A stretch of 64,000 nucleotides of DNA from Rhodanobacteraceae bacterium (GTDB taxonomy: Bacteria; Pseudomonadota; Gammaproteobacteria; Xanthomonadales; Rhodanobacteraceae): positions 15,522-79,521 of the forward strand of contig JBDTBW010000014.1 of assembly GCA_039923855.1 (NCBI GenBank), in the 5' to 3' direction. The translations under genes were made by a program, and so were the position numbers. Positions 26,168 to 64,000 of the stretch are shown piece after piece (the stretch's first letter is position 1; the number at the start of each line of letters is the position of its first letter). Below the pieces are notes generated by a model. It was not told where the DNA came from, ran no database searches, and was given only the letters and a program-made list of their open reading frames with translations.

Positions 26168-26262
26168 ATTCCCTCCCCCAGCGGGGAAGGGGTGGGGTGG
26201 GGGTATTCCACCAATGGTGGCCGCAAGATCCCATCCCAGCCTTCCCCGCTGGGGGAAGGAAA
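26168..26262. repeat. Pair of inverted REP-like units between gcvT and gcvH
   Basis: CCCTCCCCCAGCGGGGAAGGGGTGGGGTGGGGG and, inverted, CCCATCCCAGCCTTCCCCGCTGGGGGAAGG. Together they can form a long hairpin. Confidence 0.8.
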
Positions 26263-26756: not shown

Positions 26757-27184
26757 TCGCCGCGATCGGGGTTCGAGAATCGGAAACCGGAAACCGGAAG
26801 TCGAGAGAAAATGACCGCGTCGCGCAACAGGAAATTTTTCCGTTGCGCATACGTCGATCGAATACTTCGCGCGCAAAACCGATCGGTGGAATTGCACTTC
26901 TTGTGGAGCGGTTCCGGATCGGACGGTGTGCCGCGGATGCGCGCAGCGGGACCAAACGGGCGTGCGCATCGACTCTTTTCCCGCCGCGCCGACAAAAACT
27001 TGCAGCTCGGGTTTTACCGCTGTTCAGTCGGATTCGAGGCGCCTCGAACGGCGAAGCGCGGCGTGCATTCGCGCGGCTTGTTGTTTATCACGAGCGGCAC
27101 GACAAGACATTTGTCACCCGCGTGAAAGCCATACAGGAAAAGGCTTACGTGATGACGCCATGATTTTTGCAAAGCAATTTATTT

Positions 27185-27200
27185 GGACGTCTATCCGTCC
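27185..27200. promoter_or_regulatory. Weak candidate tandem met boxes upstream of the metJ-like gene
   Basis: GGACGTCT (7/8 to AGACGTCT) immediately followed by ATCCGTCC (5/8). They lie about 160 nt upstream of the ATG at 27358. Confidence 0.25.
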
Positions 27201-27298
27201 GAACGATCCCGTGTGGTGCGCACGACAATTACTTCGAAATGTGTTTATGGTCGAGTGTCGGAGTTCGCGCAAGGTCTTCATCCGCCGCAAAAAAACGA

Positions 27299-27327
27299 TT
27301 GACAGCGCGTATTGACAGGAATAGTTT
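27299..27327 (+). promoter_or_regulatory. Candidate sigma70 promoter for the metJ-like gene
   Basis: TTGACA, 17-nt spacer, TAGTTT, about 30 nt upstream of the ATG. Pattern match only. Confidence 0.3.
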
Positions 27328-27357
27328 TTGCGCCCGACGACATGCGTCGAAGGAAAT

Positions 27358-27864
27358 ATGCCGGCTGCCAAGTACATCGAGCCTTATATCGAGCATGGTC
27401 ACAAGTGTGACCGGGTGAGAAAAGTCACCGTCTCGATTCCGCTGCATGTGCTCCGGTTGCTTTCCGACGAACGTACACGTCGTCAGGTGTTGAATCTGCG
27501 GCACGCCAGCAACAGCGATCTTTTGTGCGAGGCGTTCCTGCATGCGTTTACTGGGCAACCACTGCCAACTGATGAGGAGCTGAGAAGAACCATGGCTATG
27601 AAAAAAGCTGCGAAGAAATCCGCCAAGAAGGCGGCGAAGAAATCCACCAAACGCGCCAAGGCCCGCAAACCGGCCCGCGCCAAGACCGCTTCGGCACGCA
27701 AGACCGCCAAGCGCAAGACCGCCCGCAAGGCCGCCAAGAAACCGGCGCGCAAGCGTGCGACCAAGAAGAAGGCCCGCAAGGCGCCTGCCAAGAAGGCCGT
27801 GATGGCGAAAGCCGCGCGCGCCAGCAAGGCATCGAAGTCGAAAGCGAAGTCGAAGAAGAAGTAA
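27358..27864 (+). CDS. metJ: MetJ (Met repressor) core domain fused to a ~90-aa histone-H1-like Lys/Ala-rich tail
   Basis: Residues 1-75 ([75 protein letters not shown]) align with E. coli MetJ, with most positions identical. The remainder is [28 protein letters not shown]... An AAGGAAAT SD-like sequence precedes the ATG at 27358. Confidence 0.85.
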
Positions 27865-27985
27865 GAGAAGGTCCACTGTCAAGCAACAGCAACAGCTGAC
27901 GCATACCATAACGATAAGCTTGGCTCTCCCTGCGGTTGCCCAGCGCAGGGGGAGCTAAGGCAAACTTCCATTGCAGCACTTCGTT

Positions 27986-28017
27986 AGCCCCGGTACTTAC
28001 CGGGGCTTTCCGTTTTC
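27986..28017 (+). terminator. Rho-independent terminator after the metJ-like gene
   Basis: AGCCCCGG-TACTTA-CCGGGGCT stem-loop followed by TTCCGTTTTC. Confidence 0.7.
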
Positions 28018-28054
28018 TAGGGAGCAGTTTGTAAAGCTACTGCGCTCGGCATCT

Positions 28055-28232
28055 TGCGCGCCGGCGGTGCTCGTTGCGCGCCGGCGGTGCTCGGATCAGG
28101 CCCGGTACATGGATGTACCGCTTTGGGGCCAAGGAATCCTCATGTATTGACATATACACTCCGGTTCCTGCGCTCCGGCGGCGCGCAACCTGCCTTCGCT
28201 CGCGACGCTTTTCAAATTGCTCTGGCGCGTTC
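28055..28232. repeat. Left copy of a ~160-bp repeat (inverted partner at 33807-33972)
   Basis: Hand alignment with the reverse complement of 33807-33972. The core GGATCAGGCCCGGTACATGGATGTACCGCTTTGGGGCCAAGGAATCCTCATGTA...GTTCCTGCGCTCCGGCGGCGCGCAACCTGCCTTCGCTCG differs at only a handful of positions. The left copy carries a 20-nt tandem duplication (TTGCGCGCCGGCGGTGCTCG x2). Confidence 0.85.
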
Positions 28233-63087: not shown

Positions 63088-63216
63088 TCTCCGAGGCAGT
63101 CTATCGCGGTTACGGACTCTGGATGCTGCGCGGGAAGAATGTCGCCGGACGAGGATCATGCCGGGACGGTTTGTGGTTGGCATTTTCGCTTGCTGCTCGT
63201 GGCTACTTAAATGTCT

Positions 63217-63240
63217 GGGCGTATAGACGTCTAAACGTCT
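63217..63240. promoter_or_regulatory. Tandem MetJ operator (met boxes) upstream of metB
   Basis: Three in-phase 8-mers: GGGCGTAT (5/8), AGACGTCT (8/8), AAACGTCT (7/8), scored against the AGACGTCT consensus. They end 1 nt before the putative -35. Confidence 0.65.
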
Positions 63241-63241
63241 A

Positions 63242-63270
63242 TTGACGTATAAACTGAAGCGCGCTAGAGT
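63242..63270 (+). promoter_or_regulatory. Candidate sigma70 promoter of metB
   Basis: TTGACG, 17-nt spacer, TAGAGT. The predicted start site is a few nt before the riboswitch P1 helix. Confidence 0.5.
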
Positions 63271-63281
63271 GTGTCCAACAA

Positions 63282-63400
63282 CCCATCATGACCGGCTGAG
63301 GGACAGGCCCTTTGAAGCCGGGGCAACCCGCGCGGAATCGCCCGCGCAAGGTGCCAAGTCCTGCGGAGATCCGGTTCAGGGCCGGATCGCCGGGAGATGG
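63282..63400 (+). promoter_or_regulatory. SAM-I (S-box) riboswitch in the metB leader
   Basis: CCATCATGACCGGCTGAGGGACAGGCCCTTTGAAGCCGGGGCAACC[P3 hairpin CGCGCGG-AATC-GCCCGCGC]AAGGTGCCAAGTCCTGC...GAGATGG matches the S-box core (ATCA.GA..GG..GAGGGA..GGCCC..TGAA.CC..GCAACC...GGTGC.AA.TCC...AGATG). P1 pairs CCATC with GATGG. Confidence 0.8.
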
Positions 63401-63497
63401 TTCGAAGCGTGGGCGCGCGGGCACTCCTCCCTTCGCGCGTCCGCGCCGAGACCTCCGACCGCCGCATGGACGCCGATGCCACGGGCCGGAGATCGCG

Positions 63498-64000
63498 ATG
63501 AGCCTCGACATACATTTCGCCAAATCCACGCCACGTGCATCGTGTACCCGCGCGGTGCGTGCGGGTATCGAAACCGACACCCAGCACGGCGCGGTGGTGC
63601 CGCCGCTACACCTTTCCAGCAATTTTGCCTTCGCCGGCTTCAATGGGAAGCGCAATTACGACTACACCCGCAGCGGCAATCCGACCCGCGATTTACTCGC
63701 CGATGCCTTGTGCGAACTGGAAGGCGGCGCCGGCGCGGTGGTGACGGGGAGCGGCATGGCGGCTGTCGCGCTGGTACTGGAATTGGTGCCGCCCGATGCC
63801 ACGATCGTCGTCGCGCACGATTGCTACGGTGGCACCTGGCGATTGCTGGATGCGTGGGCGAAGAAGGGGCGTTTCAAGGCGTTGTTCGTCGATCTCACCG
63901 ATACGCGCGCATTGGCCACGGCATTGGCGCAAAGGCCGGCGCTGGTGTGGGTGGAAACGCCCTCCAATCCGCTGCTGCGGATCACCGATATCCGCCACGT
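63498..64000 (+). CDS. metB: Cystathionine gamma-synthase / O-succinylhomoserine (thiol)-lyase family, 5' part (runs off the window)
   Basis: Own translation from the ATG at 63498: MSLDIHFAKSTPRASCTRAVRAGIETDTQHGAVVPPLHLSSNFAFAGFNGKRNYDYTRSGNPTRDLLADALCELEGGAGAVVTGSGMAAV...HDCYGGTWRLL...ETPSNPLLRITDI. It is collinear with E. coli MetB. GGAGA SD lies 6 nt upstream. Confidence 0.9.
   Translation, partial: MSLDIHFAKSTPRASCTRAVRAGIETDTQHGAVVPPLHLSSNFAFAGFNGKRNYDYTRSGNPTRDLLADALCELEGGAGAVVTGSGMAAVALVLELVPPDATIVVAHDCYGGTWRLLDAWAKKGRFKALFVDLTDTRALATALAQRPALVWVETPSNPLLRITDIRH

Follow-up and report, generated by a model that had tools for sequence, protein, structure and literature searches.

We found that the gene at positions 27358-27864 of a 64,000-nucleotide stretch of Rhodanobacteraceae DNA (contig JBDTBW010000014.1; the whole stretch is called the window) encodes the methionine repressor MetJ, in which the classical C-terminus is replaced by a long tail of lysine, arginine and alanine free of acidic residues. 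Our preferred reading, to which we give a probability of roughly 60%, is that this protein is the S-adenosylmethionine (SAM)-dependent MetJ orthologue of the Rhodanobacteraceae, a family of soil bacteria, and that its disordered polycationic tail acts as a non-specific electrostatic DNA-binding arm. At the level of sequence comparison, the identity of the core, the conservation of the tail and of its charge, and the conservation of the operators are established by the data presented below.

A MetJ core and a tail in one reading frame

The gene is a single continuous open reading frame (ORF) of 168 codons on the forward strand, which runs from an ATG at 27358 to a TAA stop codon at 27862-27864 and is preceded by a ribosome-binding site (AAGGA, 27350-27354) that ends three bases 5′ of the start codon. 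An earlier reading of this DNA, made from the letters without database searches (hereafter the sequence-only reading), had assigned the first part of the product to MetJ, and profile searches bear this out: residues 4-87 match the Pfam MetJ family PF01340 with 131.1 bits (cutoff 25, E=1.5e-38), and the NCBIfam equivalog NF003622 (met regulon transcriptional regulator) matches with 134.9 bits (cutoff 110). Furthermore, the MetJ chains of the PDB entries 1CMA and 1MJ2 match the core at E=3e-33, and BLASTP against E. coli MetJ gives 57 identities over 93 positions (61%).

The core spans residues 1-78 (27358..27591, forward strand) and comprises the DNA-reading strand of the ribbon-helix-helix (RHH) fold, helix A, and helix B with the SAM-contact residues. 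Both strings quoted in the sequence-only reading, the DNA-reading strand RKVTVSIP and a second core segment, are present in the protein. RKVTVSIP occupies residues 21-28 and keeps the equivalents of Lys23 and Thr25 of E. coli (KKITVSIP), and in an alignment of 48 homologues K22, T24, V25, S26 and P28 are invariant. Equally invariant in the 48 homologues, and identical to E. coli, are Glu39, Arg40, Arg42, Arg43 and residues 59-67 at the end of helix B. Taking the roles of these residues in SAM contact and signal transmission from PMC2775130, SAM binding by the window MetJ appears likely on the basis of residue conservation.

The window gene does not encode the classical form of ~105 amino acids (aa) with helix C (86-94) and an acidic C-terminus, and its alignment to E. 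coli MetJ is not meaningful past residue ~78. Several classical MetJ lineages are also without a clear helix C, so this helix seems not to be essential to the MetJ family. The in-frame arrangement proposed earlier, a MetJ core with a long Lys/Ala tail in place of helix C and the acidic end, is thereby confirmed, and we found neither a stop codon nor a frameshift between the two parts. Because 28 complete orthologues show this uninterrupted ORF architecture too, the tailed metJ is not an assembly artefact. A fusion created by a frameshift, a missed stop codon or a mis-assembly would have precedents in several enteric 'long MetJ' entries, which are frameshift or mis-start products, but nothing of the kind was found for the window gene. 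The 28 orthologues come from independent complete genomes or metagenome-assembled genomes (MAGs), 118 database clusters carry the same ORF, and the indels among them keep the frame, so that this explanation is effectively refuted.

The tail is conserved in charge and composition

The tail takes up residues 79-168 (90 aa; 27592..27861, forward strand). It contains 33 Lys, 10 Arg, 28 Ala and 3 Pro and neither Asp nor Glu (37% K, 11% R, 31% A, 3% P, 0% D/E), with a net charge of +43 and an isoelectric point (pI) of 12, versus a net charge of -5 for its 26-residue counterpart in E. coli MetJ (residues 79-104, helix C and the acidic end). Among the 28 complete genomic orthologues the tails are 30-133 aa long (median 84.5); basic residues make up 45% and Ala 32% of them, acidic residues are absent, and the charge ranges across the family from +16 to +53 per monomer. 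Asp and Glu are likewise absent from the tails of 118 database proteins (0 of 9,615 residues). A change of AAG to GAG is a single transition, and the lack of acidic residues in spite of this points to strong purifying selection on charge. With a length that varies from 30 to 133 aa and a composition that stays constant, selection probably acts on charge rather than on sequence. The tail DNA is composed of imperfect in-frame repeats of 12, 15 and 24 nt, which is consistent with a tail that grew and shrank by repeat slippage.

These observations bear on the idea that the tail is a neutral low-complexity expansion of a dispensable MetJ C-terminus. Classical C-termini are variable and some proteins are very short (90-102 aa in loci L031, L037 and L065), and the tail itself varies more than four-fold in length. 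However, the family-wide absence of acidic residues from ~12,000 tail residues, the constancy of composition, and the retention of the tail in 30 of 30 loci, with none lost to a stop codon, make neutrality hardly credible.

Scanning 930 kb of related DNA for K/A-rich acid-free segments, we found that 29 of 31 were MetJ, so such segments are not a general habit of the proteome. The other two belong to a beta-lactamase-like neighbour that has a short Lys/Ala-rich, acid-poor end in Luteibacter and Pinirhizobacter; this gene lies two genes 3′ of metJ in L006 (minus strand, ORF ending near position 1) and in L008 (minus strand, ORF from 941).

The sequence-only reading had likened the tail to H1/AlgP-type nucleoid proteins, a likeness that holds for composition but not for homology. 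The window tail matched no Pfam family at E<=10, linker histone (PF00538), Hc1 (PF07432) and HC2 (PF07382) included, and longer orthologous tails scored on HC2 below its cutoff of 40 bits (25.3 bits for L006, 18.6 for L019). A search of 5.8 billion proteins with the tail alone returned two matches, both long MetJs. With 3 Pro in 90 residues, the tail has neither the KPAA/AAKP periodicity of AlgP and PhaF nor an S/TPKK periodicity; its motifs are AKKA, ARKT and KRAK. Because there is no Pfam match and no significant relative besides long MetJs, the resemblance to H1, Hc2 and AlgP is, as far as sequence comparison reaches, one of composition and not of ancestry.

MetJ is an intertwined dimer, and this together with a shallow alignment of 48 sequences limits an AlphaFold2 model of it, for which the mean predicted local distance difference test score (pLDDT) was 54 and the predicted template-modelling score 0.26. 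The model continues a helix through the junction (residues 72-100, pLDDT ~55-65), and the remaining tail falls below 50.

A single origin within the Rhodanobacteraceae

Our protein search covered 5.8 billion proteins and returned 2,047 relatives, whereas an exact look-up of the window protein gave no entry. Among the best 120, which we inspected, almost all are 150-240 aa long, and the named ones are "met regulon transcriptional regulator MetJ" of Rhodanobacteraceae or Xanthomonadales MAGs. We also scanned one genome per GTDB species and re-extracted the ORF from each of at least 80 loci. The 30 best loci all carry the basic tail (Dyella, Luteibacter, Frateuria, Rudaea, Dokdonella, Pinirhizobacter and MAGs), and every named genus among them belongs to the family Rhodanobacteraceae; the other 50 loci, from Enterobacterales, Alteromonadales, Vibrio, Kangiella, Marinicella and others, encode classical proteins of 90-113 aa with an acidic end. 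A short MetJ in relatives of the window genome, which the sequence-only reading had thought worth looking for, did not turn up in any of the 30 Rhodanobacteraceae-type genomes.

In a neighbour-joining tree built from the core, the tailed genes group together as a single clade. They also share their neighbourhood, gcvT-gcvH-(gcvPA)-metJ-tonB-like-beta-lactamase-like, in L001-L030 and L161 (25067-29489 in the window). Because the carriers form one core clade and have the same neighbourhood throughout, the tail most probably arose once and was then inherited vertically. We observed that metJ always stands directly after genes of the glycine-cleavage system (gcvT-gcvH, sometimes gcvPA) and before a gene for a TonB-C-domain protein, and its link to this one-carbon-supplying operon may be functional.

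This synteny also places the lower-GC stretch in which the gene had been noted to sit alone. The dip in guanine-plus-cytosine (GC) content is real (0.50-0.54 at 27000-27600, compared with 0.62-0.72 in the flanks), as are gcvH upstream of metJ and the terminator and repeat downstream of it, but there is no island: the neighbourhood is conserved in all relatives, and on this comparison the low GC is a property of the conserved locus and not of a recent insertion.

When 1.84 billion cluster representatives were searched exhaustively with HMMER, only 68 proved to be MetJ. Further long MetJ entries (P0126-P0153) were considered as independent fusions and rejected; they are enteric, with frameshifted ends or upstream mis-starts. 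Two further variants were seen. P0124 is a 118-aa MetJ with an N-terminal extension and a ~40-aa basic tail rich in Arg, Ser and Ala, and P0159 is a divergent MetJ of 211 aa (54% identity) whose long C-terminal extension is non-basic and apparently helical.

As to whether such a protein had been described before, the sequence-only reading knew of no MetJ-H1 chimera. This stands in that no paper in the literature searched links MetJ to a genus of the Rhodanobacteraceae or to a tail that is Lys-rich or histone-like. It does not stand for the databases, where the architecture is family-wide and present in at least 118 clusters, all annotated simply as MetJ. Its statement that characterised MetJ proteins are those of enteric, Vibrio, Pasteurella and Shewanella-type bacteria agrees with a published survey of methionine regulation, which lists MetJ in six other gammaproteobacterial groups only, gives SamR for the Xanthomonadales and has no spread of MetJ elsewhere (PMC4239095). 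Our data imply that MetJ is not confined to the Enterobacterales-Vibrionales-Alteromonadales radiation and that the Xanthomonadales are not uniformly SamR-regulated.

Met boxes at metJ and at a met operon with a SAM-I riboswitch

Upstream of metJ, a tandem met-box pair, GGACGTCT ATCCGTCC, is located at 27185..27200 and matches the doubled consensus AGACGTCT at 12 of 16 positions; we presume it to be the autoregulatory operator. When the 400 bp upstream of metJ were searched in 30 related loci, the best-matching pair fell at -169 to -192 relative to the ATG in 29 of them, and in 25 of these no better pair occurs anywhere in the ~8-kb locus. There is no divergent gene that these boxes could control, the upstream gene (gcvH, or gcvPA in some genomes) being co-directional. 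The proximal metJ promoter lies at 27299..27327 on the forward strand, with a -35 hexamer TTGACA (27299-27304), a 17-nt spacer and a -10-like TAGTTT (27322-27327). TTGACA, the A-tract 5′ of it and the TA...T of the -10 element are invariant or near-invariant in a 19-genome alignment; the -10 element matches at just 3 of 6 positions, and a simple promoter scan made no call there.

The second operator of the window consists of four tandem met boxes, AAATGTCT GGGCGTAT AGACGTCT AAACGTCT, at 63209..63240, which match the consensus at 26 of 32 positions. In a search of the 64 kb with the two-box consensus at <=3 mismatches, the only two matches overlap within this array, at 63217 and 63225, compared with 0.03 expected by chance. 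The array abuts the -35 element of the met-gene promoter (TTGACG-17-TAGAGT, 63242-63270), ending one base before the hexamer. Starting about the transcription start, a SAM-I riboswitch aptamer follows on the forward strand at 63280..63403 (RF00162, 71.8 bits against a gathering score of 44.4) and leads into a gene for O-succinylhomoserine (thiol)-lyase / cystathionine gamma-synthase whose coding sequence (CDS) starts at 63498. We found no terminator after the aptamer in the window, so riboswitch control of the met operon may be translational.

This arrangement is not particular to the window. Three or four boxes, TTGACA and a SAM-I aptamer are found ahead of metX-metB in at least 24 metagenomic loci among the closest (within L081-L118), a SAM-I aptamer was detected 3′ of the met boxes in 17 of the 20 related loci examined, and one 220-kb contig holds both a tailed MetJ in the synteny of the window and the met-box/met operon. 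From these features two successive SAM sensors are predicted to control the met operon: MetJ, through its operator at the promoter, and then the SAM-I riboswitch of the leader. Because met boxes are conserved both upstream of metJ and at the met operon, the tailed MetJ can be expected to have retained specific met-box recognition and autoregulation.

A model for the tail and the evidence against it

In the model that we favour, the RHH core would dimerise, bind SAM and read tandem met boxes, and MetJ would repress its own gene and the metX-metB/Z operon. An ancestor of the family would have swapped helix C and the acidic end (net -5) for a disordered or nascent-helical, acid-free Lys/Arg/Ala tail. 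This tail may hold the repressor on the nucleoid, speeding the search for targets by sliding or intersegment transfer, and may increase and broaden occupancy where an operator is placed immediately 5′ of the -35 hexamer instead of over it. By analogy with the Lys-rich extensions of Ku, Hlp, CarD and DdbA, we infer that the tail most likely binds DNA non-specifically and that it thereby affects repression.

A further consequence may concern the corepressor. SAM activates MetJ with no visible conformational change, and its uncharged analogue S-adenosylhomocysteine does not activate it. An electrostatic activation of MetJ by SAM has been proposed (cited in PMC2775130), and since the tail starts a few residues past the end of helix B, where the SAM charge sits, and emerges next to the SAM pocket, it may alter the SAM dependence of binding.

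Several observations weigh against this reading. The metJ operator lies ~98 bp upstream of the -35 element of the only strongly conserved promoter, a distance that the model does not explain; the boxes may be overlapped by another, weaker promoter, or MetJ may repress from afar. The poor AlphaFold model says nothing on the position of the tail relative to DNA or to the SAM pocket. For E. coli MetJ, added positive charges did not replace SAM, according to work cited in PMC2775130. M. smegmatis Ku had a higher DNA affinity without its Lys-rich tail, which lowered simple DNA affinity and promoted end-bridging (PMC3553676). Finally, a frozen stretch of codons and a hairpin in the 3′ untranslated region (UTR), both described below, are constraints on the tail-coding region that a DNA-binding arm leaves unaccounted for.

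The choice of ligand is a related difficulty, in that similar tails in Pseudomonas bind other polyanions: the H1-like AlgP associates with polyphosphate (polyP) granules and spaces them (PMC9239181), and a similar disordered region in PhaF binds RNA and activates translation (PMC12818456). The tail of MetJ might thus localise or sequester the repressor, for example on polyP granules in starvation, or have an RNA-binding role, and the metJ locus does have RNA-level features in its conserved 3′ UTR hairpin and internal island. Methionine/SAM control would then be linked to phosphate or stress status. However, the tail sits on a DNA-bound repressor with conserved operators, it lacks the KPAA periodicity of AlgP, and nothing at the metJ locus points to polyP metabolism; we consider a polyanion other than DNA an unlikely ligand.

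A frozen codon island is complementary to a 3′ UTR hairpin loop

Codons 63-76 of metJ (27544..27585, forward strand) form an island of invariant synonymous sites, GCT TTT ACT GGG CAA CCA CTG CCA ACT GAY GAG GAG CTR AGA. Across 29 genomes the codon entropy of the island is ~0, compared with 1-2 bits elsewhere in the core, and 17 genomes share 33 nt in a row without a difference. In 50 classical metJ genes, these codons show normal variation. Several of the island codons are rare in neighbouring genes (ACT 3%, AGA 3%, CCA 10%, and also GGG and GCT; joint P ~3e-12). Three codons 3′ of the island is the ATG of Met79 (27592-27594), which is invariant and has an SD (Shine-Dalgarno)-like GAGGAG 12 nt upstream. 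We also noted that ACT-GAY and CTR-AGA within the island create conserved out-of-frame stop codons.

Downstream of the gene, a 3′ UTR hairpin at 27924..27954 (forward strand) has an 11-bp stem (27924-27934/27944-27954) and a 9-nt loop, GTTGCCCAG, at 27935-27943 with an invariant GCCCAG. It lies 42-184 nt 3′ of the stop codon in 28 of 28 complete loci and occurs in L161 as well, and neither the window nor any of the loci has a second copy. In the stem, 96.8% of the cells are paired and 6 of 11 pairs have compensatory changes, a level reached by 0 of 500 shuffles and far above that of slid controls.

The island and the hairpin may be connected. The island holds CTGGGCAACC at 27551-27560, and the loop GUUGCCCAG is the exact complement of the island start, CUGGGCAAC. 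In 27 of 28 loci the island CUGGGCA(AC) is the best duplex partner of the loop in the metJ mRNA, at -12 to -16.6 kcal/mol. A long-range pairing that brackets the tail-coding region is a strong lead only, which rests on co-conservation in related genomes; both partners are invariant, so covariation cannot prove it. If functional, it would connect a coding region with a 3′ UTR over a long distance, which is rare in bacteria.

Other accounts of the two elements were considered. A sigma-54 promoter in the island was rejected on its GG-to-GC spacing (N8/N9 and not N10), a sigma-70 promoter on the lack of an acceptable -10 element on either strand, and a hammerhead because the CUGAUGA core is broken in 15 genomes with GAC. 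The island is not a genome-wide repeat, occurring once in the window, and local RNA structure is weak (-5.2 kcal/mol, RNAalifold). Programmed frameshifting is unlikely, given that there is no slippery heptamer, that codon 75 is variable and that out-of-frame products are not conserved. For the 3′ UTR, anti-hemB (RF02837) was rejected at 23-30 bits against a gathering score of 49.5.

The position of Met79 at the head of the tail raises the question of two products. Internal initiation at ATG79, served by GAGGAG and by unstructured, rare A/T-ending codons and tuned by the island-loop pairing, would yield a free ~9.7-kDa H1-like protein beside full-length MetJ. This would fit the invariance of Met79 in 29 genomes and 48 database homologues, the freezing of codons 63-76 in tailed metJ only, and a predicted accessibility at ATG79 of 0.59 (CDS mean 0.50, true start 0.53). 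However, this accessibility ranks just in the top 10-25%, and the 12-nt spacing between the SD-like motif and the ATG is at the far edge of function, real starts in metJ genes using 3-5 nt. Moreover, in P0124 and P0125, which have a different K/A tail or none, a Met also stands directly after L-R-[RK] (E-L-R-R / E-L-R-K), which favours a structural role for the residue. We regard a second product as distinctly unlikely.

The same elements could instead make the tail a means of regulating turnover, or of controlling isoforms on the RNA through long-range pairing. A precedent for a degron-like function exists in E. coli, where polyP-Lon degrades basic proteins during amino-acid starvation. The island-loop complementarity brackets exactly the tail-coding segment, and the rare AGA-CGA codons with the SD-like motif suggest that translation is programmed to pause where the two domains meet. 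But the case is purely inferential, a degron would not need 30-133 strictly acid-free residues, and a slippery heptamer for frameshifting was not found; we consider such a role very unlikely.

More broadly, metJ might be a composite gene, in which the tail-coding half is under its own RNA-level control, gating either internal initiation of a free H1-like nucleoid protein or the translation or stability of the tail. In a related form of this idea, the +43 tail would replace the electrostatic activation by SAM, repression would be partly SAM-independent, and the SAM-I riboswitch would take over SAM sensing. The composite gene is an improbable alternative to a DNA-binding arm; if true, the SAM-sensing repressor would at the same time serve as a nucleoid-associated protein that is itself regulated.

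Comparison with known systems

The closest known system is E. coli MetJ (PDB 1CMA/1CMB/1CMC), with which the window protein shares the core (57/93), the base-reading Lys and Thr, the SAM residues, tandem AGACGTCT boxes, an operator at its own gene and methionine-biosynthesis genes as targets. It differs in that residues 79-104 (net -5) of E. coli MetJ correspond to 30-133 acid-free basic residues here, with pI shifting from 5.4 to 11.6, and in that the host family (order Lysobacterales/Xanthomonadales) is not one of the six groups with described MetJ regulons. Furthermore, metJ is divergent to metBL in E. coli but follows the gcv operon here, and in the window the met operator is immediately upstream of the -35 element of a promoter whose leader also carries a SAM-I riboswitch.

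For the tail, CarD_Ad of Anaeromyxobacter dehalogenans is comparable as a bacterial transcriptional regulator with a Lys/Ala/Pro-rich, H1-like C-terminal DNA-binding domain, which is functionally interchangeable with an HMGA-type domain (Garcia-Heras et al. 2009, as cited in PMC2919716). However, the N-terminal domain of CarD binds RNA polymerase and CarG, it has no specific operator and no small-molecule corepressor, and family and phylum are unrelated. Mycobacterial Ku and Hlp/HupB similarly carry a Lys/Ala-rich low-complexity C-terminal extension on a conserved DNA-binding fold in some lineages only, and the authors of PMC3553676 hold that PAKKA-type tails evolved repeatedly to modulate unrelated DNA-binding proteins. 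In contrast to MetJ, they bind DNA non-specifically (ends, nucleoid), and their PAKKA units contain Pro.

AlgP, PhaF, Hc2 (PF07382) and DdbA resemble the tail in their Lys/Ala-rich composition. In Chlamydia Hc2 the number and length of repeats vary among strains (PMC2848022), and in Streptomyces DdbA an H1-like region is fused to a regulatory domain (PMC3643593). None of the four is detectably homologous to the tail, and all of them lack a DNA-binding core that is sequence-specific and senses a metabolite; AlgP has polyP granules as its target, and PhaF has RNA and polyhydroxyalkanoate granules.

We thus regard the tailed MetJ as a variant of a known repressor that is spread through a whole family but undescribed; it follows the familiar pattern of DNA-binding proteins with Lys-rich tails and is not a new kind of system. 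The exchange of an acidic C-terminus for a tail of +16 to +53 beside the SAM pocket is a natural experiment on electrostatic activation. It is also one on how disordered polycationic tails affect target search and occupancy by a simple operator-specific repressor.

Other features of the locus

The intrinsic terminator of metJ lies at 27986..28017 on the forward strand and reads AGCCCCGGTA CT TACCGGGGCT followed by TTCCGTTTTC, with the stem at 27986-28007 and the T-run after it. Just 3′ of the terminator is a perfect tandem duplication of 2x20 bp, TTGCGCGCCGGCGGTGCTCG, at 28054-28093, and a copy of a terminator stem arm, AGGCCCGGTAC, appears again at 28098-28108. Between gcvT and gcvH, at 26169-26261, is an inverted repeat of 22 nt, TTCCCTCCCCCAGCGGGGAAGG / CCTTCCCCGCTGGGGGAAGGAA, its arms being 95% complementary and 49 nt apart.

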